From NCBI GenBank assembly GCA_034530615.2, contig JAVRCV020000056.1, positions 1-64,000 of the forward strand: a stretch of 64,000 bases of DNA, read 5' to 3'. Source of the DNA: Aulosira sp. ZfuVER01. Lineage in GTDB: Bacteria > Cyanobacteriota > Cyanobacteriia > Cyanobacteriales > Nostocaceae. The translations under genes and the position numbers were made by a program. Shown here one piece after another: positions 30,381-50,591 of this stretch. Position 1 is the first letter of the stretch, and each line of letters begins with the position of its first letter. The notes under the pieces were generated by a model that was not told the origin of the DNA, made no database searches, and saw nothing but the letters and a program-made list of their open reading frames with translations.

Positions 30381-30386
30381 GTTAAT

Positions 30387-31136: not shown

Positions 31137-31162
31137 ATAAAATATCGAACAGAGGTTATTCT

Positions 31163-31836: not shown

Positions 31837-34800
31837 TTAGTTAAATAGATGTGATGTCAGTTCGAGAATTTCATCAAAGCAGAAACTCCGGACTAAATTT
31901 AATAATTTTTCTGCTAAGTCAGCATGAGATTGCGGAATTTGCTCAATTAATTGAAAAATTCTCTCACCATCAACTGCAATAGCTGCTTGATGAAGTTCCC
32001 CTATCCATTCAGTGGGCATAATTGTAATTGCAGAATGAATATCTAACATAGAATATTGAACATTCTCTGACTTTTTATCTGTTATATTTTCGCTACTTTC
32101 TTCTGAGAAAAGATAGCTTAAATGTAAATATTCAGCTATCTTTTCAAAAATTATTTGTTCGCGGAATGGTTTGCGAATTAAGTCGTCGCACCCTGCGGCT
32201 AAAATACTTGCTTGTTGTTCTTCAAAAGCACTGGCTGTCAGAGCAATAATCACTGTGTGGGAATTTGTCTCTAAACTTCTCTCCCTAGCTCTAATTTCTT
32301 TAGTGGCATCGTAGCCGTTCATTACAGGCATCCGCATATCCATCCAAATTAACTGAGGTTGCCATTTCTGCCACATAGCGATCGCTTCTTGTCCGTTACT
32401 AGCAGCCTCAACTTCAAAGCCAACACCGCCTAGAAGTTGCATCATTAAATCGCGGTTTTCTTTGCGATCGTCAACTACGAGAATACGGTAAGTTGGTTGG
32501 TCTGCTGCTAGTTTGAGTACGCGCCCCCGACTCAACTTTGGTGTAACTTTTAATGGTGTGGCTAAATTAACTTGAATGTCAAAGCTAAAAGTAGATCCTT
32601 GCCCTAAATTACTGCAAAGGTGAATATCTCCTCCCAACAACCGCACAAACTGTCGGCTAATAGTTAGACCTAGCCCAGTACCCTCCTTGGTTTGAATACC
32701 ACTGCTTGTCTGGACAAACGGCTGAAACAGATTATTCATTTCTGCTGCTGCTATCCCCCGTCCAGTATCCTCAACTTCAAAGATGATGAATTGGGAATGG
32801 GGCATAGATTTGTAGTTATTCTCCTTGTCCCCCTTGTCTCTCTTGCCCCCCTTGTCCCCCGCATCCCCCTCATCCCCCAATCTCGCCCGCAACGTCACTC
32901 CCCCGGTTTGGGTGAACTTGATGGCGTTACCCAACAGGTTGATCAAAACTTGGCGGAGTTTACCTTCATCTGTTTGGATATAACGCGGCAGATCGGCAGC
33001 AATTTCAAACTTGAGGTACAACTGTTTTGTCTGCGCCCGTACCTGAAACATTTCTTGTAATGTTTGCAACATCAGGTAGAGGTCGAAGTCTTCAGGATTG
33101 AAAACGATTTGTCCGGCCTCAATTTTGGACATTTCCAGGACATCGTTAATCAGGTTGAGTAGATGTTCTCCACTACGGTTAATCGTAGCTAAAGATTCAC
33201 GCTGGTTTGAGTTGAGACTAGCGTCTCGCTCCATCAACTGAGAAAAACCTAAGATGGCATTGAGAGGAGTGCGGAGTTCGTGGCTCATGTTAGCCAAGAA
33301 AGCACTTTTGGCACGGTTGGCAGTTTCGGCGGCTTCTTTTGCTACTCTCAAGGCTGCTTCTGCTTGATGTCTAGCCCTACCGATCGCAATGATTTCACCT
33401 ACCAATTTCAGGAGATTCATCTCCTGTTGATTCCAGTTTTTCGTATAGTGAATAGTATCTGCGGCAATAAACCCGACTACTTTACCAGAATGAATCATTG
33501 GTACACCTAATGCAGATTTAATTGACTGATTTTCAAAGAATTCTTTCTCAGGTGTATCGGGTGGTAAATCGGCTATGCATGGCAAAACAGAATTTTGCCC
33601 TATAAGTATTGGTGCAAGTAAAGGGAACATTTCTAAATTGCCCCTTCTGGCATTACCGCTTAATGGTGGAATATCAGCAGCACGCCATTCATGGACTATG
33701 TAGACTTCCCTTGGCTGATCGGATAACTCAAAAATCGAGCAGCGTTCAGCATTAATAAATTGAGCGATCGCCTGAAGTGTAAAATTAATTGCTGTGTCTA
33801 TATCTTGGTCGATAAATTGGCGGGAAATACTGCTGAGTATACTTTCTAGTTGAGCGCGACTTTGCAAAGCTTGCTCTACTTGCTTGCGATCGCTGATATC
33901 TGTAAAGACAGAATCTAAACAAGATTCTTCGGCGTTGAGGCGCAGTGATAATAGTACCCAAACCACAGAGCCATCGCCACGCCGTAGTGCTAATTCAAAA
34001 TTGCGAACTTCGCCAGATGCTGCTAACTCTGCTAACATCCGGGCGCGATCGTTGGGATTAACATACAATTCAGTTGTGAAATACCTGCCAATCAAGTCAC
34101 TAGCAGCAGCGAAACCTAAGATATCAGCACCGCGTTGATTTGCATCGACAATTAATCCATCTTGTTGACGAGTGCGGAAAATCCCTACTTGGGAATTTTC
34201 AAAGATGTTGCGGTATTTCATTTCACTACGACGCAAGGCTTCTTCTGTTTGCTTGCGTTCTGTAATGTCCCGCCCCACACCAGCGATCGCAATTTCACCA
34301 TCAGGAGTGTTAATGGTGGAAGTGTTAAAGCTGAACCATCGCCAGCTATTGTTTTTGTGTCTTAATCGCACCTCAATACCTGTCTGCTTTTCCCCAGCTA
34401 TGGCTTTTTGTATACCTGCGGCGCTAATTGCTAAATCTTCAGGATAAGTAAATTCGACTACAGAATGTCCCTCGATTTCTGGCAGGGTGTAGCCCATAAT
34501 TGGAGTCACATTAGGCGAGTGGTAAGTAAAAATTCCCTCTGGAGAGATGGTAAAAATTAAGTCATTGGCATTCTCTACAATAGTGCGGAACTTGATTTCA
34601 CTTTGTTGCAAAGCTGCTTGGGCGCGTTTACGTTCTGTAGCATCGGTACCAACTGAAAGTATTTCGATTAAGTTGCCTTGCTCGTCTAAAATAGGTTTAT
34701 TTGCCCAAACTATCCAGACGCGATCGCCATTTTTGCACGAGTTTTCATTTTCATTGAATAGGTAGTTTTCTGGGTGCTGGCAAATATCAACCATTAAAGC

Positions 34801-36558
34801 CTGTAAGTCGCGCCCAGAAGTTTCAGTTTCGGGGACAATTGTCCCGACCACATTGCGTCCTATAATCTCTTGGGCATCAAAACCAAAAAGCTTTTGACCG
34901 TAGTCATTTAAGTATATGATGTCACCGTGACTGTCCCAACGCAGAATAATGCAGTTGGCTGTTTGTACCAAATCGCGATACTGGACTTCGCTTTGTCGCA
35001 AAGCTGCTTCTGTGCGTTTGCGATCGCTAATATCTCGGACTATTGCCAAGACGTGTCGTTTGCCATTGTAAATGCAAGTCGTTCCTTTAACTTCCACATC
35101 TATTAAAGTGCCATCTTTGCAGATATCAACAGCTTGTCCATAAAATTGCCCCCCAGCGCGCGTTGTCTCAAGAAACTCATAGAAAACCGGATGTGAATTT
35201 GGGTGAATGTAAACTGATGGATGCAAAGTAATAAATTCTTCGTAAGTATAACCATGCATCTGACAAGCAGCGGGATTAACTTCGGCAACTGTTTCGGTTT
35301 CTATGTCAGTAATAAATAGTCCATCATTAATCGCTTCAAAAATACTGCGATATTGCAACTCACTTTGTCGCAATGCTGCTTCTGTTTTTTGGCGTTGGGT
35401 GACATCACGGAAACTCCACACTCTACCAATAATCTGGTCTTTGATGCGCTGAGGACAGGAGTATCTCTCAAAAACCCTACCATCTTGCAATTCTAAAAAG
35501 TCGTAACTATCTAGCTCTGGCTGGGCGTATAATTCTCGAACTCGCTGCAAAAATCCCTGAGGATCTTTTAACTGGTTTGCCAAATACGCCAGCCGCTTAG
35601 GATGGTCTGGTTCTGTTAAAAGTTCTGGTGGAATTGACCACATTTCTAAGAACTTTTGATTGTAACTGGTGATATTTCCTAAGCTATCAATTGCTAAGAT
35701 ACCGTCTTGAATCGATTCCAAGATCGCGCTTAACAAAGATAAGGAGTTTTCTAAAGCTACTTGGGTAAGTTTGCGATCGCTAACATCACGCCCTAAAACT
35801 ACCAGCGCCTTGCGTCTACCATCTGGGTGAAATACAGGCACTTTAATCATATCCACAATGCTCACTGTACCATCAGGGCGAGGTACAACTTCTTCTACCC
35901 GATTTACAGATCCCTGCTGCCAAGCTTGTTCGTCTGTTTGGTCGCAATTGAGTAAAGTATCGTGATAAAAATCGCTAAATTGCGCTAGTTCGGAATCAGT
36001 TTTTCCTTTGTAATCAACACCATGTATCTCTAAAAATTCCAGGTTAGCTTGATTCGACTCCAGCCATTTTCCTTCGCTGTCCTTTAAACAGATAATATCT
36101 GGTGTCGCGTTAATTAGCGTGCGTAAACGTTCTTCACTCTCTTGGAAGGATTTTTGAGCTTGTTGAGCCAGCGTAATATCCTGAATTACTAGTACAGCAC
36201 AATCATCCTCATTCAGTCCCGCACGACTACCAGAGATTTGCAGCACCAAAGAACGCTTACCTTGATGAAACTCATACTCTGTAGTTTCGTACTTTCCATT
36301 TTGGATCAGCACATCAGGGTAGGAGTTTAAAGCAACAGGTTTTCCTAATTTTAATAAGGGTAGTAACTCACTTAGCTGCCAGCCTGCGATCGCACTTTTG
36401 GGCCGATTCACCAGACACTCAAAGCTAGAATTACACCATTGAACACGTCGGTCTTCCCCAACCCAGACTACAGCATCAGCGATCGCACCTAGCGTTACTT
36501 CCATCTTGGTAAGGGTTGCTTGCAATAGCTTAACCTGCTCTAGCTGTTCAGCGCTCAT
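31837..36558 (-). CDS. Cytoplasmic multi-PAS/GAF hybrid sensor histidine kinase with C-terminal REC
   Basis: About seven PAS/PAC units (DITERK/DISDRK ends), GAF, FLANMSHELRTPLN, GTGLGL, ILVVDD..WMDMRMP; no evident TM helix. Confidence 0.92.
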   Translation of the reverse strand: MSAEQLEQVKLLQATLTKMEVTLGAIADAVVWVGEDRRVQWCNSSFECLVNRPKSAIAGWQLSELLPLLKLGKPVALNSYPDVLIQNGKYETTEYEFHQGKRSLVLQISGSRAGLNEDDCAVLVIQDITLAQQAQKSFQESEERLRTLINATPDIICLKDSEGKWLESNQANLEFLEIHGVDYKGKTDSELAQFSDFYHDTLLNCDQTDEQAWQQGSVNRVEEVVPRPDGTVSIVDMIKVPVFHPDGRRKALVVLGRDVSDRKLTQVALENSLSLLSAILESIQDGILAIDSLGNITSYNQKFLEMWSIPPELLTEPDHPKRLAYLANQLKDPQGFLQRVRELYAQPELDSYDFLELQDGRVFERYSCPQRIKDQIIGRVWSFRDVTQRQKTEAALRQSELQYRSIFEAINDGLFITDIETETVAEVNPAACQMHGYTYEEFITLHPSVYIHPNSHPVFYEFLETTRAGGQFYGQAVDICKDGTLIDVEVKGTTCIYNGKRHVLAIVRDISDRKRTEAALRQSEVQYRDLVQTANCIILRWDSHGDIIYLNDYGQKLFGFDAQEIIGRNVVGTIVPETETSGRDLQALMVDICQHPENYLFNENENSCKNGDRVWIVWANKPILDEQGNLIEILSVGTDATERKRAQAALQQSEIKFRTIVENANDLIFTISPEGIFTYHSPNVTPIMGYTLPEIEGHSVVEFTYPEDLAISAAGIQKAIAGEKQTGIEVRLRHKNNSWRWFSFNTSTINTPDGEIAIAGVGRDITERKQTEEALRRSEMKYRNIFENSQVGIFRTRQQDGLIVDANQRGADILGFAAASDLIGRYFTTELYVNPNDRARMLAELAASGEVRNFELALRRGDGSVVWVLLSLRLNAEESCLDSVFTDISDRKQVEQALQSRAQLESILSSISRQFIDQDIDTAINFTLQAIAQFINAERCSIFELSDQPREVYIVHEWRAADIPPLSGNARRGNLEMFPLLAPILIGQNSVLPCIADLPPDTPEKEFFENQSIKSALGVPMIHSGKVVGFIAADTIHYTKNWNQQEMNLLKLVGEIIAIGRARHQAEAALRVAKEAAETANRAKSAFLANMSHELRTPLNAILGFSQLMERDASLNSNQRESLATINRSGEHLLNLINDVLEMSKIEAGQIVFNPEDFDLYLMLQTLQEMFQVRAQTKQLYLKFEIAADLPRYIQTDEGKLRQVLINLLGNAIKFTQTGGVTLRARLGDEGDAGDKGGKRDKGDKENNYKSMPHSQFIIFEVEDTGRGIAAAEMNNLFQPFVQTSSGIQTKEGTGLGLTISRQFVRLLGGDIHLCSNLGQGSTFSFDIQVNLATPLKVTPKLSRGRVLKLAADQPTYRILVVDDRKENRDLMMQLLGGVGFEVEAASNGQEAIAMWQKWQPQLIWMDMRMPVMNGYDATKEIRARERSLETNSHTVIIALTASAFEEQQASILAAGCDDLIRKPFREQIIFEKIAEYLHLSYLFSEESSENITDKKSENVQYSMLDIHSAITIMPTEWIGELHQAAIAVDGERIFQLIEQIPQSHADLAEKLLNLVRSFCFDEILELTSHLFN

Positions 36559-36956
36559 TAGCGATTCCTTATTGCCTCTGGGATAGATTGAATACCAGTT
36601 TGGTATAGAGATTGTATCGCTAATTATAAATGCTTGAACAAGTTTCTAGAATTGCTTCATAGTATTCTGTTACACGAAATTACAGCAAGAGTATTAGCTT
36701 GTTTGAATTCTCGAAAATTTTAATAATGCTTTTTGAATAAGTTAATTTCTTTGCTTTATTGGTGTGGATTTAGTACCTCGACTTCTTTAATAATTCGGGG
36801 TTCTAGGCAATAATCTCCAATTCTCTCAACCATTACTAGGTATATAGGTGATACCACGATATTTAAGTGCAGATTTAGGTCGATTTTGAACTGGTTTCAA
36901 TTTTACAATCTGGTAACTAAATCCACTATCCTTTGCTGACTATTCCCACTACACAA

Positions 36957-37697
36957 CTACGAATACAGGCTTCCGGATTTATCTGTAGGCTGATTAATTT
37001 TACATTTTGAATTTTGAATTGTCTCAAGGGGTTGACGGCTTTTAATTACTCGTGCTGGTACACCCACAGCTACTGAAAATGGAGGAATATCTTTAGTAAC
37101 AACAGCGCCAGCACCTATTACACTACCTCTACCAATGGTCACGCCATCTAATACTTTCACCCCATGACCTAGCCAGCAGTCATCCTCAATTACGATCCCC
37201 TTACAAGTAATACCTTGGTATTTGATTGGCTCACTTGGATCTGCAAAGTTGTGATTATTTGCATATATTCCAGTGTGGGCTGCAATTAAGCAGTGCTTAC
37301 CAATTTTAATTTCTCCAGGGCCAGCAATACAAACGCTAGGGCCAATAAAAGTATCTTGACCGATGTGAATACAAGTGTTGTTTAATGCCCCTATGAGAAC
37401 ATTACGCTCAAGAACAACTCCATTTTCTAGATGAATTCTATTATTCTCGTGTCCTTTTCCATCTATACGAACACCTTTGAAAATATATGCTCCATTGCCA
37501 ATCTCAATAGCATCAGTACTAATAAATTCAACGCCATCTTGAATATAAACTGAGCTACCTAGCCGGGCAAAAATTGCGCGATACATCAAATTACGTAACT
37601 TTACGCCTCCAAAAATTGTGGGAATATCACCTAGAAAAGTAATTAGCAAAAGTTGTTGAAACCGCTTCAGTTTTGAAAAATATCTCAAGTCATTCAT
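36957..37697 (-). CDS. Hexapeptide-repeat acyltransferase
   Basis: IVIEDDCWLGHGVKVLDGVTIGRGSVIGAGAVVTKDIP; likely ATG 37697 (ORF track 37754). Confidence 0.85.
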   Translation of the reverse strand: MNDLRYFSKLKRFQQLLLITFLGDIPTIFGGVKLRNLMYRAIFARLGSSVYIQDGVEFISTDAIEIGNGAYIFKGVRIDGKGHENNRIHLENGVVLERNVLIGALNNTCIHIGQDTFIGPSVCIAGPGEIKIGKHCLIAAHTGIYANNHNFADPSEPIKYQGITCKGIVIEDDCWLGHGVKVLDGVTIGRGSVIGAGAVVTKDIPPFSVAVGVPARVIKSRQPLETIQNSKCKINQPTDKSGSLYS

Positions 37698-38739
37698 GGC
37701 TCTATTATTCTTGATTGCGTTATTGGAGATTTTTGGAATTGTGAAATACCTCACAATATCCTGTATTTGAGTCTTGCTATGTATTGCCTATATTGCTGTC
37801 TTTTGAGATTGCAAGTCCACGAATAAACAAGATAGCCGATCTAAAGTTTTTCAAACATTTGAAAAACCCAAAGCAAGCTCTCAGGTTAGAAGCTATTAAA
37901 TCTAGGGGCTATTTAATTATTAGCAATAGCTTTACAAGAGATGTCGTATATTTATTTACAAGCTTATGATTGAATCTATGTACTTGTTGAGAAATTCGAG
38001 CAAATACTTTTTCTATCTGTCACTGATGACTACTGAAGCTTAATGTTTCCCCACAAAATCAAATACTTAACTCTCGATGTGGATTAGTTAGTAATTTGAC
38101 AAGCTACTATAATTCAGTATTCAGTTATCAAATATCAAAGTAGTGATTTCAATTCAATTACATCTATTTATGCTGTTTCCAAGCAAGCATAAAATTTCCT
38201 CGCTAACTTCAAGATGCAATTGTTGAATTACTCATAAAATTTCCCAGCAAGTACAAGCACGTTAACTTAGGGGGGAGTGTCTCCAACTTCAGCCATCACA
38301 TTGAAGTTAACCATCGGAGCATACAAATAAACACTTCCCCGATTACTATAACGGCTTACTTGCAGCCAGTTTTTATAGTCTGCTGCTGTTCTCATCATTA
38401 CGTACACAGAGAATTTACATATTCACTAAAGCGCCTTTATAGTGACACCATTAGTGTGCTTTCCCCATCCTAGAAGAGACTGATAAAAGTATTGTTAAGG
38501 AACAGTAAAGTTTAAAGGAAAAATATAAAGATTTCAAAATAGACTTGATTTTGTAATCAGTATTTTTCTGGCTTTAGGCATTAATTATACTATCGATAAT
38601 ACCCAATTAAGCAAATAAATAAGCACTAAAAATCAGGGTAAATATTTCCTATGTGGTGCTGCATTAGACTAGAAAATTTACCATTGATTTATAATATTAA
38701 GTATTGTCGGTAAAAAGTTAACTAGTTTTTGATAAAAAC

Positions 38740-38973
38740 CTACTTAAAGAGCAATACAGGAATGTGGCTGCTGCGTCGCATTTGGGCTGTAGTACTGCTA
38801 ATGACTAAGTGCCGAATACATCTGTGTCCGTAGGCTTCTATAATCAGTAAATTCATATCTTGCTGTTCTACGTAGCTGGCTATAACCCTTTCTGGTTCGC
38901 CATGTATGATTTGACAAATTGGTACAAAACCACCTTTACGCGCTTCTATTTCAGCAGTTTGTAGGCGAGACAT
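38740..38973 (-). pseudogene. C-terminal fragment of a universal stress protein
   Basis: HGEPERVIASYV..LLIIEAYGH..IRHLVISSTT..HIPVLLF, degenerate versus the G..G.G....GS consensus; N-terminal half absent. Confidence 0.65.
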
Positions 38974-39322
38974 CGCTGCTGCATCTGGTTGTTTAGAGGC
39001 TAAGTCAACAACATTAGGAATTGATGAGCGATCGCTTCATCAATCCAAGTTTACAATCTTGATGCAGATTTTAATTCAGACAGGCGATCGCCTAGTGCAT
39101 CTTCATTAGGGATCAATATAATGTAGTATCTTTTTTCTTCGTTTTGGCAGCTTTCCTGAAATACCTTGACTTGAACTAGTGCGTTAGGCTACGCCATAAC
39201 ACACGCTACAAATACCTAATATTTTTTCAAAATTTAAATCGGATTTTTATAGTTGATTTTTACTACATAAAAAAAGCTTACAGCTAACAGAAATTTTTGG
39301 GTTCCTCGCTATTTTTAAAGTA

Positions 39323-39511
39323 ATGATGGAGCCGCTTCAAATGAAACGATGTGAAACACTAGCTGAATTGGTCGCACGAACTGTGGTTGAATTTGAGCAA
39401 CGCGAGCTAGAACTACAAAAAGCTCAGGTGCATCAAGTAAAGCCACAAGAAAAAGCTACTAAGCAGCGTAAATCGAATCAAGTTGCTTATACCATTTCAC
39501 CAAAAATATGA
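39323..39511 (+). CDS. Small hypothetical protein convergent with the XisF-like recombinase
   Basis: 62-aa ORF in otherwise empty intergenic space; helical, charged composition. Confidence 0.45.
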   Translation: MMEPLQMKRCETLAELVARTVVEFEQRELELQKAQVHQVKPQEKATKQRKSNQVAYTISPKI

Positions 39512-39583
39512 TGCAGACGCAAACCTTGGAACCTTTGCTGAGTCTCAATTTCTTAATTTTGAATTTTGAATTTTGAATTGGTA

Positions 39584-41146
39584 TTAGTGTAGGTATAACA
39601 GTTCAACTCCTGTTACTAGGTTGCCATCTACCACTATTCTTTTGATACATCCTTTAAGTAAAGCTTGTTTGTCCTGTTGTTCTAAACCTTGCCAATATCT
39701 CTCGTTAGAAAATGCAACAACAATTCGCTCTTTAGCTATGAGATATTGTTTAGATGTGTTGTTTGTTGTAGCGACAGCCGTTGCTATCTGCATCCTGATA
39801 TCCTCTTTAGCTTTTTCAATTGCTGGATTTGATGGTAATGCTTCTAATGTATTTAAAGAAGCCCGCAGTGTTTTAACCTCTGGTGATTCCTCGCAAGAAT
39901 CAACTTTTTGTTCTACTAATCCAGCTAACCTTTCTGCTTCCCGAATTAAATGATTAATTACTTGTTTTTCTAATTCATCTGAAGAAATCATGCGTCCGTT
40001 TTGACAAGCACCAGTACGATAAAAACTGCATTGATAGTGATGACGGACATAATTTTTACGTTTAACCAATTTCTTGCACTGGCGACTATAAGCAGCACCA
40101 CAATGAGCGCATTTAACTAAGTTGGCGAATGGGTTGACATATTTTTGCTCGGTAGCCCATCGGTTATTTCGGTTCTCACGGATCGTGGCTTTAATGCTTT
40201 CGTGTTCCTCACGGGTGATAATCGTTTCATCTTCGTGGGTTCCCCATGTTACTTCCCATTCATCGAAGGGTTTGCGATGTCCTTTGGGGCGAACCATCAC
40301 ATTATATGGTGTCCCCCCTGCATAAATAGGATTTACGAGGATAGAGCGTAACCCAGAAACCGACCACTTCAATCCTGTGTGCGGATAACGCAGATTTAAC
40401 GCACCTCCACGAGATTTGTTGATATTCTCTAGTACAATTTCCTCTGATTCCTTTAGGAGGTTAATTCTGGTATCGGTGGCTTTGGGAATGGCGTTTGCTT
40501 GTATACCAAAAGTCTCATGCAGTACTTTCACTGTTTGAGATACTGTACCTACTGCTAAAAAGGTATCAAATACAAATCGCATCAATTGCGATCGCGTGAA
40601 TTCTCTCTTCCCCTCAATTAAACAAACACAGGGACGCTCATCTCGTTTGTATTTGTCATCCTCAACCATATACCCCAATGGTGCATTCCAGTGAGGTTTT
40701 TTATTTTCTTTACGGGTGTCGCGTTCTTTTTTGACTCGCATTGCTAGCATTTTCACCTCATACTTAGATGCTGCTAGTCGCACATCGATTGTTAACTCAC
40801 CACCAATACTCGATAAGTCGAAAGGCTCATCTAGCGCATAGGGTTGTATACTTTTCTTTTTTAACGCATCCATCAAACGATAAAAAGTCATTGATGAAGA
40901 TGTTAAACGGTCGATGCGAATAAATAACAACTTCGATACTTTACCTGGTGCAGATGCATTAATATCTTCAATCAACTGTAACAGCCCTTTACGGCGATCG
41001 CTGGTACGGCTTTCTACGTCGTAATATATGTGCGTTGCACCAGCCTCACGCAACCGCCGCATTTGTTTGATTAACGCGCCTTTATCTTCCGCCTGCTCAT
41101 CTGTTGAAACCCGTGCGTAACCCAAAACGTCCATATACCAAACCAT
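39584..41146 (-). CDS. XisF-family large serine recombinase (nifK element)
   Basis: GYARVSTDEQ..DKGAL, RIDRL, GGELTID, PCVCLIEG, NPIYAGG, KCAHCG zinc ribbon; resembles Anabaena XisF; starts ~40-55 bp from the nifK break (alternative start 41134). Confidence 0.88.
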   Translation of the reverse strand: MVWYMDVLGYARVSTDEQAEDKGALIKQMRRLREAGATHIYYDVESRTSDRRKGLLQLIEDINASAPGKVSKLLFIRIDRLTSSSMTFYRLMDALKKKSIQPYALDEPFDLSSIGGELTIDVRLAASKYEVKMLAMRVKKERDTRKENKKPHWNAPLGYMVEDDKYKRDERPCVCLIEGKREFTRSQLMRFVFDTFLAVGTVSQTVKVLHETFGIQANAIPKATDTRINLLKESEEIVLENINKSRGGALNLRYPHTGLKWSVSGLRSILVNPIYAGGTPYNVMVRPKGHRKPFDEWEVTWGTHEDETIITREEHESIKATIRENRNNRWATEQKYVNPFANLVKCAHCGAAYSRQCKKLVKRKNYVRHHYQCSFYRTGACQNGRMISSDELEKQVINHLIREAERLAGLVEQKVDSCEESPEVKTLRASLNTLEALPSNPAIEKAKEDIRMQIATAVATTNNTSKQYLIAKERIVVAFSNERYWQGLEQQDKQALLKGCIKRIVVDGNLVTGVELLYLH

Positions 41147-41188
41147 AGAAGCGTTATCCTAATATAACTTGATAACTAGCGCATTAGT

Positions 41189-41446
41189 TCTCTTCTGTTC
41201 ACCGAGCCTGTAGACCTGTTAATCGGTAACTCCTACGGTAAGTACCTGTGGCGCGATTGTAAGGTTCCCCTCGTAAGAATTGGCTATCCCATCATGGATC
41301 GTCACCACCTGCACCGCTACAGCACCATCGGTTATCAAGGTGTAATCAACCTCCTCAACTGGGTTGTTAATACAATCTTCGAGGAAATCGATCACAACAC
41401 TAACATTCCTTCTAAGACCGACATTTCCTACGACTTGATTCGTTAA
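41189..41446 (+). CDS. nifK: Nitrogenase MoFe protein beta chain, 3' fragment (gene interrupted; no start codon)
   Basis: Not in ORF track; translates SLLFTEPVDLLIGNSYGKYLWRDCKVPLVRIGYPIMDRHHLHRYSTIGYQGVINLLNWVVNTIFEEIDHNTNIPSKTDISYDLIR*, the NifK C-terminus. Confidence 0.93.
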   Translation, partial: SLLFTEPVDLLIGNSYGKYLWRDCKVPLVRIGYPIMDRHHLHRYSTIGYQGVINLLNWVVNTIFEEIDHNTNIPSKTDISYDLIR

Positions 41447-41471
41447 GAATCACATTCACTCGCGACGTGTC

Positions 41472-41526
41472 TAAAAAGTAAAAAGTAAAAAGTTAAAAAG
41501 AAATATCTTTTTACTTTTTACTTTTT
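41472..41526 (+). terminator. Hairpin formed by inverted TAAAAAG/CTTTTTA heptamer arrays after nifK
   Basis: taaaaagtaaaaagtaaaaagttaaaaag-aaatat-ctttttactttttacttttt. Confidence 0.55.
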
Positions 41527-41548
41527 CCTCGTACCTGAAGTATTGATT

Positions 41549-41893
41549 ATGGAAACTATCACCAAACATCACTCTCATTCTCATCCTCATCCTCAGCCTA
41601 ACTACCATCCACCCAACTATAAACGCTCTGGTACTTTTGATATCTTGAATCCCTTGCGTCGGTTGGTTGATGGCATTACAGTAAAAAATGCTCGTTTTGC
41701 CCATATAATTTGTCAGGTAATACCTTGCTGTTGTCCCTTTGAGCGCAATATTCAATTATTAGGCAAGACTTTTCATATTCCCGCACTGTGCAAACTCAAT
41801 CCTTTGTATGATGAGTTTGTGATGTTGCGTTTTCGTGCGCTCTCTTATCTTGCAGATGAATGTGGAGAGGATGTCACAAAATACATTTGTTAG
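41549..41893 (+). CDS. Mo-dependent nitrogenase C-terminal domain protein
   Basis: ICQVIPCCCPFERNI..IPALCKLNPLYDE..LRFRALSYLADECGEDV; lies between nifK and nifE. Confidence 0.85.
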   Translation: METITKHHSHSHPHPQPNYHPPNYKRSGTFDILNPLRRLVDGITVKNARFAHIICQVIPCCCPFERNIQLLGKTFHIPALCKLNPLYDEFVMLRFRALSYLADECGEDVTKYIC

Positions 41894-42022
41894 AAATTAG
41901 TTGCTACTCATTACTCATTACCATTAGTCAAAAGTCATTAGTCATTGGTTATTAATTATTAATTATTAGTTATTCAAATGACAAATGACAAATAACAACT
42001 GCCATCCAGCAAGAGAAGAGAG

Positions 42023-42586
42023 ATGAAAATCACCCAAGGCAAAATTAACGAGCTGCTTAGTGAGCCAGGATGCGAACATAATCAGCACAAACAAAGCGAA
42101 AAGAAAAACAAGTCTTGTACCCAACAGGCGCAACCAGGCGCGGCTCAAGGGGGTTGTGCTTTTGATGGCGCAATGATTGCCTTAGTGCCAATTACTGATG
42201 CGGCTCATTTAGTCCACGGGCCGATCGCCTGTGCTGGTAATTCCTGGGGAAGTCGTGGTAGTCTCTCTTCAGGCCCCATGCTCTACAAAACGGGGTTTAC
42301 CACTGACTTAAGTGAAAATGATGTAATCTTTGGGGGCGAAAAGAAACTCTACAAAGCCATCCTCGAAATACATAAACGCTACAATCCAGCCGCAGTTTTT
42401 GTTTACGCTACCTGCGTGACTGCTTTGATTGGTGATGATATCGATGCTGTTTGCAAAACTGCGGCAGAAAAAATTGGCACTCCTGTTATTCCGGTAATTG
42501 CTCCGGGATTTATTGGGAGTAAAAATCTGGGTAATCGCTTTGGCGGTGAAGCTTTGCTGGAATATGTAGTAGGTACAGCAGAACCA
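42023..42586 (+). CDS. nifE: FeMo-cofactor scaffold protein NifE, 5' fragment (gene interrupted)
   Basis: [38 protein letters not shown]; homology stops after GTAEP and the frame ends at 42619. Confidence 0.93.
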
Positions 42587-42646
42587 CAACACTTACAACC
42601 ACACCTTGTTATGATATGATTTTGGGACTGATTTAAATAAATTCCC

Positions 42647-44053
42647 ATGAGAGTTTACGGTTACGCCCGCGTTAGCACGCAAGAACAAGCTGAGGAGTTT
42701 GACGCACTAAATCAGCAAATAGCTAGATTAAAGGCGGCGGGTGCAACGGAAGTATTAATAGATATTGAGTCGGGACGCAACGATGGGAGAAAACAGTATA
42801 ACGAGTTGCTCAAGTTGACGCAACAAAACCAAGTTGACGAAATTATCATAACTCGCGTCGATCGCTTAGGTAGGAGTGTGATAGCTATCCATAAGGCGAT
42901 CGATATTTTCGTGAAGCATAATGTTAATCTGCGAATATTGGATGCACCTGTCGATCCTAATTCCCCTTTCGGCTGGTTTAGTATTAATCAAATGTCTGGG
43001 TTGGCAGAATTTGAATCAAGGTTATTATCTCAGAGGATTAAGCATGGAAATAATTATTTTCGACAGCAACTAAAGTTTTGCAGTCCGCCATTTGGATATG
43101 CTAAAGACGAAAATCAGCGGTTAATTCCTAATAACAATATTCACGAAAAATCAGGGAAAACTTACTTTGAACTAGCTAAGATTATTATTGATTTAACACT
43201 CTCGATGCGATCGCTTAAGGATGTCTGCAATCATATTTACACTGAATACGAAGTAGTTTTTAGTGTTGCAGGCTTGCGAGATTGGGTGAAAAACCCGGCA
43301 CTGCAAGGACATACAGCTTATTTCGTCAAAAAGAAGAAAGGCGTTAATCGCGAACCAATCATAAATTTCAACACCCACGAAGCCTTAATTACCGCAGACA
43401 CAGTAGACGCAATCCAACGTAAGTTGTTAGCAAATAAGAAGTATCGCAGTTCCGCACAATCAACTCGTGGCGACTATCCCCTCGCAGGCTTAATTAAATG
43501 TGCCTATTGTGGGGGAGGTATGTATCGTAACTTTTCCCGCCACAAAACTAGAACCGAGTACATACGCTGCGTTAATTACAACAAACCGGGAAAGTATCAC
43601 TGCGAAAATTCCAAATGTACCCGACTGCGGGAAATTATCGCCCAGACGATCGCGGCTTTATGTGCAAATGCGCCGAATTTAATTGAGTATCTAGAAACTC
43701 AGTCAACCACAATGCAGGCGATTAATACCAAAGAAATCGAAAACTTAACCAATGAATTGTCCGTTATGCGGGGGCTACGCAGCTCCAACCCCGATATCAT
43801 TGAAGCGATCGCCAAAATCGAGGCGACAATTAACACCCTATCAAGTCCCACTAGAATTGTTGATAGGGATGCTTTTGAGAATGCTAAGAGGAAAATAGCG
43901 ATCGCATCTCAGGCTACATTCTGGGAATCTTTGGATGATTCGGAATTGCGATCGGCGTTGGCTGAGTTTGTCGAGAAGGTTGAGGTGGATTCGTCGGGGG
44001 ATATAACTCCTGCTTTTAAATTGCCATTAACCCTATCTTCAATGCGTCCGTAG
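42647..44053 (+). CDS. Large serine recombinase (nifE element)
   Basis: MRVYGYARVSTQEQ, ESGR, TRVDRLGRS, AEFESRLLSQR, PPFGY, KCAYCGG zinc ribbon. Confidence 0.9.
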   Translation: MRVYGYARVSTQEQAEEFDALNQQIARLKAAGATEVLIDIESGRNDGRKQYNELLKLTQQNQVDEIIITRVDRLGRSVIAIHKAIDIFVKHNVNLRILDAPVDPNSPFGWFSINQMSGLAEFESRLLSQRIKHGNNYFRQQLKFCSPPFGYAKDENQRLIPNNNIHEKSGKTYFELAKIIIDLTLSMRSLKDVCNHIYTEYEVVFSVAGLRDWVKNPALQGHTAYFVKKKKGVNREPIINFNTHEALITADTVDAIQRKLLANKKYRSSAQSTRGDYPLAGLIKCAYCGGGMYRNFSRHKTRTEYIRCVNYNKPGKYHCENSKCTRLREIIAQTIAALCANAPNLIEYLETQSTTMQAINTKEIENLTNELSVMRGLRSSNPDIIEAIAKIEATINTLSSPTRIVDRDAFENAKRKIAIASQATFWESLDDSELRSALAEFVEKVEVDSSGDITPAFKLPLTLSSMRP

Positions 44054-44479
44054 GTTTTGATGAACTCTTCGGGAGACATATCCCCAACCTTCAAGTCTCC
44101 GTAGTATTTTTCATAAGCTTCCAGCAACTTGTCACTGAGCATTTTTAGTACTTTTTGGGAATGTGTGGAAGTCATAAAACATTCTGTAGCGATGTTTTTA
44201 GATTATTTGTTGGCTGGAATTTTTCTGTTAGCAGTGAACGACTTGAAAATGCCAACATTGATGAAGCAACATCCTGAAAGCTCAAATTTTCACATTAGGT
44301 AGTAATGTTGACATTGTTTGTTGAGTCAAATTACTAACCTCTTTGAGTTATTTTTTAATTTAAGAATGAATTACTTTTTATAGTGCGATCGCAATAGTTT
44401 TACTTACATCCACAAAGACTTTGCGTAAGCACAATTATTATTTGAGAGAATTCCCAGCTTAAGCATATCTCAAATTTTT

Positions 44480-44580
44480 ATTCAGGGCTTTGAGTGAATT
44501 GTCAAAAGTAGCCAGGATGTTGCCGAAGCCGGAGCATCAGGAATGGCTGACGCAGATATCAGTACGGCATCGGTGGTCTT
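44480..44580 (+). pseudogene. Fragment of a PBP-like (molybdate-binding) domain of a VnfR-type regulator
   Basis: IQGFE*IVKSSQDVAEAGASGMADADISTASVV resembles the I.G.....SH..VA..VASG.ADAG motif; internal stop, no start. Confidence 0.45.
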
Positions 44581-44807
44581 GAGCGATCGCAACTATATCA
44601 AAATCAACACAATAGAGCGTATTAGATCGGTCGTTAATCAGGTAACAACATCAATGAGTAAGGGAAAAAGGGGAAAGGCTTGAATTCATTTCCCCCTTAA
44701 ACTTTTTTCAAAGCATAACAAACAGAGATGAAAATTGCTGCTTTGAACCTTGATTTGTAGGTATTTTAGGCTAACAATAGCTGTCGATTTTCTTAAAAAA
44801 AAGTCTT

Positions 44808-44888
44808 AATATAGCAATCCTTGTAAGAGTTACAAACATCTCTCTTTCTTGTCACCTTCGTTCCTATATCAAATAGGATTGCTATATT
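44808..44888. mobile_element. MITE-like element with 14-bp terminal inverted repeats
   Basis: aatatagcaatcct...aggattgctatatt immediately downstream of modA. Confidence 0.6.
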
Positions 44889-44893
44889 GAAAA

Positions 44894-45688
44894 TTAAGGC
44901 AGAATAAAGCCGTATTTTTGGAGTACTGCTTTAGCTTGACTGCTAGAGAGAAATTTGGCAAAATCCTTGGCAGCATCAGCATTTTTGCTACTTTTAAGGA
45001 CTGCAAGTGGATAAACAATCGCAGAATGATATTTTTCGTCAGCCGCCACTACAACTTTTACCTTATCGGAAATTTTGGCATCAGTGATATAAACTAAACC
45101 TGCATCAGCGTTGCCACTTTCTACAGATGCTAGTACTTGACGTACATTGTTAGCGTAAACCAATTTTGACTTGACCTGTGGCAAAAGTTTGAGCTTCTGA
45201 AGTACTTGCTCACCATATTGTCCTGCGGGTACACTTCTAGGTTCACCAATGGCAATTTTCTTAATTTTGGCGTCTTTGAGGTTGTAGAAGCTGGTGATGC
45301 CCACAACATTTTTAGGTACTATCAAAACCAGACGGTTCTTAGCCAAGATAGAACGTGTTCCAGATAGTAAGAGTCCTTTTTCTTCTAGAGCATCCACTTG
45401 CTTTTTAGCAGCCGAAATAAAGATATCTGCGGGCGCACCCTGCTCAATCTGTTGCTGCAATGCACCAGAAGCCCCAAAATTATAATTAATGTTGGTCTTT
45501 GGTTGAGTTTGTTGGTAAAGAGGCTTAAGCTCTTCCAGCGCATCTTTCAAACTGGCGGCGGCTGACACAAGAAGCTTGGCCTGTGACTGTGCTAATACAG
45601 GTGAGGGAGCAACTGCTGGTAAACAAGTGGTTACTAGCACACTAGCAACTGCTGTACTAATTAAGGTAAGAATTCGTCTTCTGTTCAT
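44894..45688 (-). CDS. modA: Molybdate ABC transporter substrate-binding protein
   Basis: VSAAASLKDA, NFGASGALQQQIEQGAPADIFISA, VPAGQY, ADAGLVY. Confidence 0.93.
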   Translation of the reverse strand: MNRRRILTLISTAVASVLVTTCLPAVAPSPVLAQSQAKLLVSAAASLKDALEELKPLYQQTQPKTNINYNFGASGALQQQIEQGAPADIFISAAKKQVDALEEKGLLLSGTRSILAKNRLVLIVPKNVVGITSFYNLKDAKIKKIAIGEPRSVPAGQYGEQVLQKLKLLPQVKSKLVYANNVRQVLASVESGNADAGLVYITDAKISDKVKVVVAADEKYHSAIVYPLAVLKSSKNADAAKDFAKFLSSSQAKAVLQKYGFILP

Positions 45689-45761
45689 AGAAAAAACTAC
45701 AAGCCAAAGATTTGTTTATAAAATTGACACTTGGTAAAATCGTACAAGATAACCAAAATAT

Positions 45762-46080
45762 TACCAACTTAATTGGTGATGCTATTTAAGATATTACACA
45801 GTCTTAATCAGTACTCCTCAGCATCACTATAATTACCAACTCCACCGTTTCACTATTACTCTGCACTCCTGAATAAGCTTAGTTTTTAGCATTTGTTTTG
45901 GTATTGTAAATGCTTGGTGTTTGCAAATTGGTAACTAGTGCTACATTTTTTCCAACTTAATTGGTATAAGTTGTATACCAACTAAATTGGTTTAGATAGA
46001 CAACCGTAATACTGCGAGAAACGTAGTGTGATGGTTGCAATAGCTGTAATTCTTGTTACTTTATACCAACTATGTTGGTC
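45762..46080. promoter_or_regulatory. Four palindromic T(A/T)CCAACT-N3-TTGG operators (45762, 45950, 45976, 46064) plus a half site (45834)
   Basis: taccaacttaattggtg, ttccaacttaattggta, taccaactaaattggtt, taccaactatgttggtc in the modA/porin divergent region. Confidence 0.8.
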
Positions 46081-46095
46081 AAATATATTTGAGGT

Positions 46096-47934
46096 GTGAG
46101 GGTAATGTCCACTTTTGTACGGTCTTCGTTGTTACTACTGCTAGCTAGTATGATGACAGCTAAAGCTGCATCAGCAACTCCAGCGGGAGGAGATACCAAG
46201 CAATTACAAGCTGATAGCCAACTAAATAATTCACAGACAGAACTATCCCAACAGAGTCAGCAGGTTCCAGATGACAACGCACAACCAAGCTCTTTGATGG
46301 ATCAGGTAACATCAGTATCGCAACTCTCTGATGTGCAACCGACAGATTGGGCCTTTCAAGCTTTACAGTCTTTAGTTGAGCGCTATGGTTGTATTGCTGG
46401 ATATCCAGACAGCAGCTTTCGAGGTAATCGCGCAATGACTCGCTATGAGTTTGCAGCAGGTTTGAATGCTTGTTTGAATAGAGTCAACGAACTGATTGCG
46501 ACTGGTACAGCCGACTTAGTAAGCAAGCAAGACTTGGAAACTCTGCAAAAATTGCAACAAGAGTTTGCTGATGGATTAGTAGAACTGCGGGGAAGGTTGG
46601 ATGGTTTAGAAGGTCGTACTGATACCTTAGAAAGTCAACAATTTTCCACTACTACCAAGTTGAATGGAGAGGTAATTTTCAGTGTTGGTGGTGTATTTGG
46701 TGAAGATAGAGCATTAAACTCAGATGTTTGGAACGAAATTAATGCTAGGCCCGCAGGCGCAACCAGGGAGGCTTTCACAAACAATCAGTATGCAGCATCA
46801 GGAGGACGAAGGTTACAAGATAGAGCAGTTTTTAGCGATCGCATCCGACTCAATTTAATTACTAGCTTTACTGGTAAAGACCAATTATTTACTCGTTTAG
46901 AAGCCAATAACACCATTGCCTTTAGTGGTGCTGTCACAGGTACAAACATGACTCGCACATCCTGGGACACCACTAATAATGCTGACAACAGTGTTCAGTT
47001 AGGTAAGTTATTTTATCGCTTTCCTGTAGGCGATCGCCTCAACGTGATTGTGGATGCCATTGGTGGAGAATTTTACGACAACTTCAATACATTGAACCCC
47101 TTGTTGTCTTCAACTCCTGTTGGTTCTTTGTCTCGCTTCGGTCGCTTTTCTCCGATTTATCGCGCAAGTAACACTGGTTCTGGTAGCAATATAGGTTCAG
47201 GTGTAAGTGCGATTTTCAAGTTGAGTGACACAATCACTTTATCAGGTGGTTATCTGGCTCGCAGAGCTAACGATCCGATTTCTGGAAAGGGCTTATTTGA
47301 CGGTAGTTATGGCGCATTAGCCCAATTGGCATTTCAGCCAAACAAAAACTTTAACCTTGGTTTGACTTATGCTCACTCCTACCTCAGAGGTGCGAACAAT
47401 GATGGTGATGTCGTAGTTTCCGGAGCCTATGGGAGTGCATTTGCGAACAATCCCTTTAACTCTACTGCGACTACTCCGGTTAACACTACCGCCAATCACT
47501 ACGGCTTAGAAGCTAACTATCGTTTTAGCCCACAATTTACCCTTGCAGGTTGGGTTGGATATACTCAGGCGATCGCAGAAAATAGTTCTGGTGCTAATGT
47601 TAATCGTGGCGATAAAGCAGATATTTGGAATTGGGCAGTTACTTTCGCCTTTCCCGACCTAGGTAAAAAGGGTAATTTAGGGGGTATCATCTTTGGACAA
47701 CCGCCGAAGGTAACTGGTAACGACTTTGGAACGAATACTGTTACTGCAACAAATCTTGTACCTGACAGACGTATAGACACTGATACCTCTTTCCATTTAG
47801 AGGCTTTATATCGTTATCAAGTTAATAGCAATCTTTCAATTACGCCAGGATTGATTGTGATATTTAATCCAGAGCATAACAGCGATAACGACACCATCTA
47901 TACAGGTGTTCTTCGCACTACATTCCGCTTCTAA
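46096..47934 (+). CDS. SLH-domain OprB-type outer-membrane porin
   Basis: QVTSVSQLSDVQPTDWAFQALQSLVERYGC, QFSTTTKLNGE, C-terminal RTTFRF. Confidence 0.92.
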   Translation: MRVMSTFVRSSLLLLLASMMTAKAASATPAGGDTKQLQADSQLNNSQTELSQQSQQVPDDNAQPSSLMDQVTSVSQLSDVQPTDWAFQALQSLVERYGCIAGYPDSSFRGNRAMTRYEFAAGLNACLNRVNELIATGTADLVSKQDLETLQKLQQEFADGLVELRGRLDGLEGRTDTLESQQFSTTTKLNGEVIFSVGGVFGEDRALNSDVWNEINARPAGATREAFTNNQYAASGGRRLQDRAVFSDRIRLNLITSFTGKDQLFTRLEANNTIAFSGAVTGTNMTRTSWDTTNNADNSVQLGKLFYRFPVGDRLNVIVDAIGGEFYDNFNTLNPLLSSTPVGSLSRFGRFSPIYRASNTGSGSNIGSGVSAIFKLSDTITLSGGYLARRANDPISGKGLFDGSYGALAQLAFQPNKNFNLGLTYAHSYLRGANNDGDVVVSGAYGSAFANNPFNSTATTPVNTTANHYGLEANYRFSPQFTLAGWVGYTQAIAENSSGANVNRGDKADIWNWAVTFAFPDLGKKGNLGGIIFGQPPKVTGNDFGTNTVTATNLVPDRRIDTDTSFHLEALYRYQVNSNLSITPGLIVIFNPEHNSDNDTIYTGVLRTTFRF

Positions 47935-47997
47935 TTCAACCCCAATTCGAGTAGTGCGAATTTTTTCAATATTCAATAGTAAACGGAGAAATGTTTT

Positions 47998-48675
47998 ATG
48001 CGTTTTAGCCGCAAGATACCTATTGCATCTTTAATACTATCGATACTGGTTTTATGGCAGCCTACTTTAGCTGACTCCAGGGCTGATGTTCCTTGGAATC
48101 GAGAAGAAACACCATCTATTTGGTGGAATAAAAATAAGTGTACTGGAGGCTTTTCGCAAAGTTTTCGCTTGGGTGGAGAACTCAATAATCCAACCACCTA
48201 TAACTTGCAAAACCTGAGAAATTTGCGAGATGCTTTAAAAAACCAAAATCCCGCAATAGTTACGGAAATCACTGTTAGCTTTCAAACAGGCTCAGGCCCA
48301 CGCACAGAAACATACTATGGAGTTCCCCTCTGGGAGTTGATTAATAATCCACAAGCCGCAGGTGGTCTAAAACCTGGGAATTCTGGGGTGAATTCTAAAA
48401 ACTCTTTTCTGAGGCAATATGTTCTAGTTGAAGCCACAGATTGTTATGGTGCAGTTGTAGCTATTGGTGAAATTCAACCGAACTTTGAAGGAAAAACAGT
48501 GCTAGTTGCATTTGAAAAAAAAGGTAGTGATGGTAAAGTCACAACTTTAATAGATGAAGGATTTGCTCGCTTAGTAGTTCCTCTTGACAAAGCTGGAGGT
48601 CGTTACGTTAGTAATGTGAGAAATATTCTCGTCTTTTCTGCTCCTCCATCTCCTTTGAAACCAAAAGATTTCTGA
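47998..48675 (+). CDS. Secreted molybdopterin-oxidoreductase-like domain protein
   Basis: Signal peptide; YYGVPLWELI, VEATDCY, ARLVVPLDKAGGRYVSNV resemble the sulfite-oxidase-type Moco-binding fold. Confidence 0.65.
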   Translation: MRFSRKIPIASLILSILVLWQPTLADSRADVPWNREETPSIWWNKNKCTGGFSQSFRLGGELNNPTTYNLQNLRNLRDALKNQNPAIVTEITVSFQTGSGPRTETYYGVPLWELINNPQAAGGLKPGNSGVNSKNSFLRQYVLVEATDCYGAVVAIGEIQPNFEGKTVLVAFEKKGSDGKVTTLIDEGFARLVVPLDKAGGRYVSNVRNILVFSAPPSPLKPKDF

Positions 48676-48771
48676 TAACTTTTTCTACCTTTGTGATTAA
48701 AGACGCTGCACGAACGGAGAGTTATTTCCGTTATCGGGGTAATAGTAAGTTAAAAAAAATGTGACAGATGG

Positions 48772-48800
48772 GTAAGGGCACAACAATGTTGTGCCCTTAC
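48772..48800. repeat. Perfect palindromic dispersed repeat
   Basis: gtaagggcacaaca-a-tgttgtgcccttac. Confidence 0.75.
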
Positions 48801-49085
48801 GAATAATTTATCTTTTGCAAACATTATTTGAATTAGGATAACTTCTTATCTGCGTAATCAGCTACTGTGTTTTCATCATCTTGGTTGCAATATGTAATTC
48901 TCAAGTACTATTTACCTGACGCCAGTTTAATTACTATTACTTATAGCTGTAAGCATTTTCACTTGAAAAATCTGACATATTCAGATAGAATCTTCATATA
49001 ATCAAGTAGTTCTATCAATTTAACTTAGTATTTTAAATATTTATGAATAAATTGCCAAAGTTGTATAACTATTGCCTTGTCCAAT

Positions 49086-49889
49086 ATGAAACAAATTAAA
49101 TTTGTAAATAATGCTGGAAAAATAACTGCACTTTTATTTTTAATCACAATTTTACTGACACCTTTTGTGGTTGTAAATGCTGGAGAACGCGGAGTTTTAA
49201 TGCAGTTTGGCAAGGTTCAGGAAACAGTATTGGGCGAAGGAATACATATTATAATTCCCATTGTCAATACAGTTAAAAAAATCAGTGTCAGAGTTCAAAA
49301 ACAAGAAATCTCTGCTGAAGCTTCTTCTAAGGATTTGCAAGATGTTTTTACAGATGTAGCATTAAACTGGCACGCTATTCCGGAAGAAACTAATATAATG
49401 TTTCAAGAAATAGGTGATGAAAAAGCTTTAGTTGATAAAATTATCAATCCTGCGGTAGAAGAAGTTTTAAAAGCTATTATAGCAAGGTATACAGCAGAAG
49501 AAGTAGTTACTAAACGAGGAGAAGTAAAATCTGGTGTTGATGATACTTTAAAAGCGAGATTGCATGACTACCATATTGCGGTTGATGATATTTCTCTGGT
49601 TCATGTCAATTTTTCGGATAAGTTTAGTGAAGCAGTTGAGGCAAAACAAATTGCAGAACAAGATGCCAAACGAGCAGATTTTATAGCACTAAAAGCAGCA
49701 AAACAAGCAGAAGCTAAGGTTAATTTAGCTAGGGGAGAAGCAGAAATAAACAGATTACTACGTGATAGTTTGACTAATGAGATTTTAGAAAGGCAAGCAA
49801 TAGAAAAATGGGATGGTAAATTACCTTTGATTATGTCTAAAGATGCTCCTAAGCTTTTAAATATGAATGAAATTTTAAAATTAAAGTAA
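49086..49889 (+). CDS. Prohibitin/SPFH family protein
   Basis: VNAGERGVLMQFG, SKDLQDV, AVEAKQIAEQ, IEKWDGKLP. Confidence 0.9.
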   Translation: MKQIKFVNNAGKITALLFLITILLTPFVVVNAGERGVLMQFGKVQETVLGEGIHIIIPIVNTVKKISVRVQKQEISAEASSKDLQDVFTDVALNWHAIPEETNIMFQEIGDEKALVDKIINPAVEEVLKAIIARYTAEEVVTKRGEVKSGVDDTLKARLHDYHIAVDDISLVHVNFSDKFSEAVEAKQIAEQDAKRADFIALKAAKQAEAKVNLARGEAEINRLLRDSLTNEILERQAIEKWDGKLPLIMSKDAPKLLNMNEILKLK

Positions 49890-49986
49890 TTTGGCTATAG
49901 CAAGCCTATTTCAGTTGTGAAAAACAATCAGTGTTGACAGTCTGTATTCGATATTCCACAAATTATTTATAAAATTTATATAAAAT

Positions 49987-50012
49987 AACCCAGTATGGTG
50001 AACTGGGTTTTT
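49987..50012. terminator. Hairpin between convergent genes
   Basis: aacccagt-atggtga-actgggtt followed by T run. Confidence 0.6.
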
Positions 50013-50014
50013 CA

Positions 50015-50443: not shown

Positions 50444-50591
50444 ATTTGTACACTATTTCTACCAACTAACCGTACTTTAAAACAAAAATTTCAAAAAGTC
50501 TAGAGTCACACAGAAATTTAAATTCCAAAAACCTGTTAATTGTAAGTAAAGTTTCTGTATTAATAAACTCTGTAATTACAACTGAAAATTT

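Follow-up and report, generated by a model that had tools for sequence, protein, structure and literature searches.

Known interruption elements of nifK and nifE

Interruption elements of nif genes were surveyed by Hilton, Meeks and Zehr in 2016 (PMC4874684), who described elements of up to nearly 1 Mb with variable content, and Table B of that survey lists two that resemble the locus considered here. One of these, nifK-1277, has a GTTC/GTTCT repeat and a serine recombinase at the element's end, on the minus strand and at a distance of 51-62 bp; it measures 16-85 kb and is listed for Calothrix PCC 7102 and PCC 7103, Microchaete PCC 7126, Rivularia PCC 7116, Scytonema UTEX 2349 and C. rhizosoleniae SC01. 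The other, nifE-558, has a TGAACC repeat, a serine recombinase at its beginning (plus strand, 66 bp) and a size of 9.5 kb, and is listed for Scytonema hofmanni PCC 7110 and, with the remark ‘odd assembly’, for Calothrix PCC 6303. Uesaka et al. (2024; PMC11249958), in the available parts of their report, describe restoration both by excision and by inversion, together with contigs that join the excised ends; restoration at the nifK element of Calothrix NIES-4101, beside a serine recombinase, was shown there by reads and PCR, and a flipped nifD3'-nifK5' piece was noted in Fischerella PCC 9339. The logic of combining inversion with excision is therefore already published. A 2026 preprint (10.64898/2026.01.15.699626), as far as its available text goes, counts, among 163 Nostocaceae strains, 37 with a fragmented nifK and 21 with a fragmented nifE, and names Aulosira; the available text of PMC8461463 adds nothing on nifK or nifE.

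Both insertions found in Aulosira sp. ZfuVER01 appear, by breakpoint, repeat core and recombinase position, to be of these described kinds, and they lie side by side in a layout that is common in relatives. The nifK interruption falls at nucleotide 1277, with a GTTC(T) core, a recombinase at the element's end on the opposite strand (53 bp) and a size within the 16-85 kb range; it differs from nifK-1277 in its cargo (a lantipeptide cluster, an eCIS and a fatty-acyl cluster) and in adjoining a nifE element. The nifE interruption falls at nucleotide 557, with a GAACC core and a recombinase placed at its start, on the same strand (68 bp from the repeat start, against 66 bp listed), whereas its interval is at least 62.7 kb long rather than 9.5 kb. 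Calothrix NIES-4101, in the available description (PMC11249958), is alike in its several serine recombinases beside their sites, its long intervals with no xisHI inside and its use of one enzyme class for excision and inversion; in contrast, its nifE is intact and nine events are involved, as compared with four in Aulosira and no demonstrated need for inversion.

A further comparison is provided by the fdxN element of Anabaena PCC 7120 (XisF-XisH-XisI), whose recombinase family includes the two Aulosira enzymes, XisK and XisE, in that both pass the NCBIfam XisF model. An identification of either element with the fdxN element was nevertheless rejected: the targets here are nifK and nifE, none of the 10 xisH copies in the genome lies on the contigs that carry the assembled intervals (C22, C56 and C63), and Aulosira has its own separate fdxN element on C22. 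No description of the side-by-side nifK/nifE ‘module’, or of its flipped form, was found in the literature, although the supplements of surveys may list such cases. What is added here is the frequency of the paired module, its flipped form in cultured strains, and evidence that large size arises through captured accessory DNA.

The nif island and its partner halves

The window is the whole 64,000-bp stretch that was analysed, positions 1-64000 of contig JAVRCV020000056.1 (C56), in a draft genome of 8.03 Mb in 83 contigs. Contigs are cited below by C numbers and read sets as X1-X4; G000 is the Aulosira sp. ZfuVER01 genome, and other G numbers are family genomes.

Between two XisF-family serine recombinases lies an island, nifK3'-orf-nifE5', at 41187-42585 (+). 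It begins with the last ~86 codons of nifK (41187..41446, +), which align to residues 426-511 of a solved NifK, continues with a Mo-nitro_C orf (PF06967 by Pfam; 41543/41549..41893, +), the customary gene between nifK and nifE in these genomes, and ends with ~187 codons of the nifE 5' part (42023..42585, +), which match the NifE N-terminus with an E-value of 6e-72. A profile search of C56 with PF00148 returned only the nifK and nifE fragments, and Pfam scanning of 52 of the 87 listed window ORFs revealed no further nif gene, in agreement with the initial annotation, which had called this the sole nif DNA present.

The island is very probably a short piece of ordinary nif operon caught between two neighbouring interruption elements that are restored in heterocysts, each equipped, at its island-side end, with its own XisF-type recombinase. 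The anatomy of the locus, the partner halves and the in-frame joins between them, the symmetry of the sites, the purifying selection, the distribution and the turnover of cargo are all observations. Heterocyst-specific timing, the pairing of each enzyme with its site and the persistence of circles would follow from published systems, by analogy with which each recombinase almost certainly rejoins its split gene in nitrogen-fixing cells.

The missing halves had been placed at least 41 kb to the left and at least 21 kb to the right. Both were located, beyond those minima, on other contigs (nifK5' runs up to C22:77022, and nifE3' from C63:28244 onward), and the cluster is intact. An 8-bp repeat that starts GTTCT at the left edge of the island (41187..41194, +) matches the end of nifK5' at C22:77015-77022 and marks the crossover region at nifK nt 1277; a 7-bp repeat that ends GAACC at the right edge (42579..42585, +) matches the start of nifE3' at C63:28244-28250, in the crossover region at nifE nt 557. 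Joining the halves at these repeats yields a NifK of 511 aa and a NifE of 474 aa, both free of gaps, at 96.7% and 97.9% respectively to the intact congener genes, with offsets of 1277 and 557.

On the element side, the arm of the right nifK site (41163..41186) is an inverted repeat of the arm at C22:77019-77044, and the arm of the left nifE site (42586..42611) is an inverted repeat of the arm before C63:28244. In each pair 15 of 26 positions are symmetric, a value reached by 0.08% of 200,000 random pairs, and the arm inverted repeats around the core are kept across relatives. A promoter overlapping the nifE arm was considered and is not claimed (3 promoter-like sites, against 3.3 expected).

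The two recombinases

The large serine recombinase gene of the nifK element, xisK, occupies 39584..41134 (-), with an ORF open to 41146 and an ATG at 41134 that is conserved in relatives; its counterpart in the nifE element, xisE, occupies 42647..44053 (+). Both products contain Resolvase, Recombinase and zinc-ribbon domains (Pfam) and score above the 375-bit cut-off of the NCBIfam XisF model (541 bits for XisK and 503 for XisE), and they are only about 25% identical to one another. The xisK ATG is 53 bp from the start of the nifK repeat, and the xisE ATG is 62 bp past the end of the nifE repeat (68 bp from its start), which bears out the earlier description of two recombinases that face away from the island and start within ~60 bp of their junctions.

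Values of dN/dS are 0.067-0.084 for xisK against nine relatives and 0.066-0.093 for xisE in eight comparisons; by these ratios both recombinases are under purifying selection, and their dS, of the same order as that of the nif fragments, fits vertical inheritance with the operon. Among named genomes, the closest xisE sequences (87-94%) belong to records of Aulosira, Calothrix, Nostoc, Tolypothrix and Plectonema, which marks this as a Nostocales genome of the heterocyst type. With their sites mapped, the two recombinases may also serve as tools for handling large DNA fragments.

Elsewhere in the genome, a serine recombinase at C22:42585-44123 (+), inside the fdxN element, also passes the XisF model, with no interrupted gene seen upstream, and others are found at C12:13745-15262 and C57:1033-2154. 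A remnant of a Usp domain lies beside the xisK 3' end (window 38740-39036).

The nifK element

The first 41.2 kb of the window (1..41186) form the right part of the nifK element, and contain an IS end, the second half of an eCIS cluster (500-12249), VWA/response-regulator genes, a fatty-acyl-AMP ligase/desaturase/ACP/CMAS (‘lipid’) cluster (18973-27943) and PAS kinases. The right end of C22 and the left end of C56 are opposite ends of one IS and carry an identical 6-bp duplication; for every one of the 6 ends of the first type of that IS, exactly one partner was present among 7 opposite ends. The eCIS, moreover, runs over the gap, with VgrG-like genes on C22 and gp25 and baseplate J on C56. 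From the unique duplication and the continuity of the eCIS we infer that C22 and C56 join, across an IS that no read spans, which would place the nifK halves in direct orientation on one replicon.

The element comprises 70.7 kb of assembled sequence plus the unassembled IS interior, or about 72 kb. The interval also holds signalling genes and a cinnamycin-family lantipeptide/LanM/prenyltransferase cluster, and the assignment of eCIS, lipid and signalling genes to the DNA between direct nifK sites was thus well founded. The lantipeptide cluster, at the left end of the element (C22:~81500-90400), consists of a cinnamycin-family precursor, LanM, a Nif11-leader protein and a LynF/TruF-type prenyltransferase. 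The eCIS as a whole (window 1-12249 plus C22:~91800-106499) has the IS inserted between its spike genes and gp25, and includes a 1856-aa protein with an OmpA-like stretch.

The nifE interval

The left part of the nifE interval (42586..64000, continuing to C56:77033) carries a second modA (44894-45688), an OprB porin, TauE/Cad/LysR genes and, by profile matches, a sulfur cluster (cysK-rrf2-cysE-cysA-NIL-ssuE-ssuD). The interval measures at least 62.7 kb (34.4 kb on C56 plus 28.2 kb on C63). The right end of C56 and the left end of C63 belong to different IS families, so that at least one more piece must lie between them; tests of joined flanks gave no spanning match for either end, and synteny tests did not connect the two. 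A join of C56 to C46 (3-bp duplication) was rejected, as synteny joins that end of C46 to C20, and C4-C65 and C59-C1 were excluded as partners. Synteny puts the left part of C35 next to the C56 end in G007, G008 and G013; the partner of this end may be C35, C33 or C55, or else a small piece, bounded by two IS, that is missing from the assembly.

Within this interval, a PAP2/TauE pair (window 50558-52528) has a 90%-identical second copy on C54, and three consecutive NIL-domain ORFs lie in the sulfur cluster (window 61047-62273). On C63 are a short psbA-like fragment (4927-5256) and a gene (16522-17488) whose homologues lie inside the nifD element of G006, G007 and G008 and the nifK element of G003.

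Distribution and flipped modules in relatives

Among 389 family genomes, 41 have an xisE match at 76% identity or above (55 matched in all, 14 being dropped with best matches of 39-49%) and 70 have an xisK match at 72% or above (82 matched, 12 at 52-54% being dropped). The back-to-back module, defined as divergent genes on one contig 1.2-2.3 kb apart, occurs in 23 of the 389, the island having been confirmed directly in G000 and 7 congeners and the other 15 counted from coordinates. The 40 loci taken from named genomes, which overlap the 389-genome set and do not provide independent counts, include 36 xisE orthologues; 20 of these have the full module and 7 an uninterrupted nifK at this point; in 6, xisE stands reversed at the nifE3' end, and the other 3 either are too short or show no nif fragment. 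The 2016 survey has two entries for the nifE element, which is thus seen to be common (41/389) and is often found beside the nifK element.

Close relatives differ in which elements they have. Neither element is present in G005, G006 or G008, and in the closest congeners (G006 and G008) nifK and nifE are uninterrupted; G003 and G012 have the nifK element only (411 kb and 15 kb), G013 the nifE element only (42 kb) and G011 both (116 and 6 kb), and G009 has xisE, nifK not being found there. Genomes with neither element, with one, with both direct, and with both but the island flipped offer a natural test series for the question of whether such elements are selfish relics or useful.

In 7 of the 23 module genomes (G002, G004, G007, G010, G014, G146 and G344) a partner half is on the opposite strand; 4 are direct for both halves, 7, among them G000 by inference, are direct for the sole placeable partner, and the remaining 5 have no partner that can be placed. 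From geometry, an opposite-strand partner half implies one inversion and one excision, in either order. Five flipped congeners have a ~150-bp repeat, inverted, on both sides of the module, which is a candidate for the breakpoint of one ancestral inversion. Flipping through cross-reaction of the nifK and nifE sites, both of which read GAAC toward the recombinase, was rejected: each recombinase stays with its own fragment in flipped genomes. In cultured strains, nifK5' is opposite to the island in Nostoc carneum NIES-2107 (L152) and Tolypothrix tenuis PCC 7101 (L154), which would make these cultures a much simpler model of inversion followed by excision than the nine-step Calothrix.

Reversal of xisE at the nifE3' end, with an unchanged core, as if the interior had flipped between inverted arms, is seen at L176, L168, L171, L173, L177 and L185 and in G013. 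In G012 (C57:100250-104560; L046), 4.3 kb of transporter genes lie between xisK and its site, parting the enzyme from its junction.

Proposed sequence of events

The number of rearrangements is larger than supposed. At least two independent recombinations had been proposed, and these are needed; the count is, however, an understatement, for four interruptions (fdxN, nifD, nifK and nifE) have to be resolved. In addition to nifK5', C22 holds nifB, fdxN split by about 40 kb, nifSUH, and nifD split by 19,063 bp at an xisA site, and C63 continues downstream of nifE3' with nifN, X, W, hesAB and fdxH. The fdxN element (C22:10620-50570; ~40 kb) contains a type III CRISPR locus and RT-Cas1; the 19-kb nifD element, with its xisA site, spans C22:56307-75370.

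In vegetative cells, nifK and nifE would remain split. Late in heterocyst development, each recombinase would recognise the inverted-repeat arms at both of its own sites, with crossover in the short core (GTTC for nifK and GAAC for nifE). Excision by XisK would release about 72 kb, in circular form since the nifK sites are direct; XisE would remove its interval should nifE3' be direct, and would otherwise invert it. Together with the fdxN and nifD events on C22, these four events would rebuild nifB-fdxN-nifSUHDK-orf-ENX; at least ~190 kb, some 2.4% of the genome, would be cut out or turned to make one nif operon. In this scheme an element would need only two sites and a recombinase, and would be removed only in non-dividing cells; accessory DNA between the sites would then be tolerated, which would account for the large size and non-conserved content of the elements. 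Against the scheme, no loose end at 41187 or 42585, as expected of an excised or rejoined junction, occurs among the X1-X3 rows listed, from contigs that drop rare forms, and the contigs seen are of the vegetative type; a contig of X4, from a ~93%-identical relative, has nifK5'-type letters joined exactly at 41187, and is indistinguishable from an element-free strain.

Alternative explanations

A dead, decaying nif cluster or a misassembly, named at the outset as possible refutations, is hardly credible. The assembly is a draft of 83 contigs, and X1-X3 may be its own source reads and hence not fully independent of it, so that more weight falls on other genomes, of which 22 have the same junctions. 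Every half is present and in frame, and the nif fragments have dN/dS of 0-0.07. The genome has single sets of nifD/K/E/N and a single nifB, and thus no spare nif cluster. In X1 and likewise in X2 (Logan), a single contig of 9,248 bp spans 39558-46500, both junctions included, with zero differences, and X3 contigs span the same region in two pieces. A second alternative concerns nifE alone: the nifE3'-nifNX block may face the island, in which case XisE would flip the interval and leave modA and the sulfur genes on the heterocyst chromosome. Precedents exist, since nifE3' is on the opposite strand in G002, G004, G007, G010 and G014 and also in G344, G317 and G162, and an opposite-strand nifE3' has been published for Calothrix NIES-3974 and PCC 6303 (in the available text of PMC11249958). 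Against this, the ~150-bp inverted repeat that flanks the module in the five flipped congeners was not found in G000, nifK5' is also opposite in four flipped congeners where it is visible but direct in G000, and nifE is direct in G001, G011, G013, G130, G369 and G376. Inversion is accordingly an unlikely course here, and a direct nifE3', with excision of the interval, is the more likely arrangement; the earlier suggestion that genes might be inverted rather than lost is borne out in relatives, and may apply to nifE in Aulosira as well.

The cargo invites an alternative of a different kind, in which eCIS, lantipeptide, lipid, molybdate and sulfur genes were selected to reside in the elements for a heterocyst-specific change in dosage or expression. 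The cargo ORFs appear undamaged; the genome has one copy each of ligase, CMAS, gp25, baseplate J, ssuE and ssuD; a block from LysR to DUF202 lies inside a nif element in three genomes (the nifK element in G001 and G011, the nifE interval in G000); and ModA and sulfur assimilation are relevant to synthesis of the FeMo-cofactor. Selection of this kind is nonetheless very improbable in light of what relatives contain. In a search of 7 near-complete congeners, the distance between nif and the lipid/signalling block is about 1.6 Mb in G003, 1.5 Mb in G004 and 0.33 Mb in G007, while G002 and G014 have just the signalling part of the block, and G011 and G013 nothing but paralogs; relatives of modA/oprB are outside the nifK and nifE intervals in 7 near-complete congeners. 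A canonical modA-modBC is present on C49, cysK, cysE and cysA have paralogs elsewhere in the genome, and the elements, which range from a few kb to 411 kb, have little content in common. A DNA search with the C22 part of the eCIS, run with no positive control genome, gave no match in five of five congeners. The original proposal of developmental editing with functional cargo, taken as an adaptive feature, is not supported by these observations.

Origin and turnover of the cargo

Several observations are evidence that element size comes from captured accessory DNA. Only 33% of 400 kb of the G003 nifK element has a counterpart in G000, compared with 77% for 20 evenly spaced control stretches, and this, with the absences among congeners, marks the intervals as accessory-rich DNA of fast turnover rather than core chromosome. 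No housekeeping genes were found among the matches shown in the two intervals, and no tRNA in their assembled parts. A prophage or conjugative element was rejected for the assembled parts: no capsid/terminase or relaxase/T4SS appeared among the Pfam matches listed for 52 ORFs of the window or the NCBIfam matches listed for 118 flanking ORFs (best 5 families each). The flanks had also been called HIP1-rich and chromosomal in character. Their density is indeed genome-like (1.16 per kb in the nifK interval and 0.87 and 1.38 in the two nifE parts, against 0.96 for the genome), but it is uninformative, as the ordinary 19-kb nifD element has 1.31 per kb and HIP1 therefore does not set these flanks apart.

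A broader proposal treats xisK-[nifK3'-orf-nifE5']-xisE as an old, orientation-tolerant two-recombinase module whose intervals serve as germline ‘sinks’ for accessory DNA, the cargo being carried on heterocyst circles with dosage or expression changed by excision. As a whole this is speculative and improbable. The module, the flips and the range of sizes (72 kb here, 116 kb and 411 kb in congeners) are seen in sequence; a regulatory role of excision on the eCIS, RiPP, lipid and sulfur/molybdate cargo is its unproven part. In strains with a flipped module, such as L152 and L154, the enzyme that acts first would invert and the second would excise a hybrid nifK/nifE circle. Excised elements are reported, in the available text of PMC11249958, to persist as circles in heterocysts, so that excision need not remove a function.

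The LysR-to-DUF202 block occupies 53291-56855 of the window, and lies directly after nifK5' in G001 and G011; an exchange of cargo between the nifK and nifE elements by double inversion was rejected, as the shared block faces the same way with respect to nif in both G011 and G000. The 411-kb nifK element of G003 (C1:3657000-4067900; L080-L099) includes a tRNA-Ala(CGC) gene, and it also contains DNA that in G000 sits just downstream of the nif cluster.
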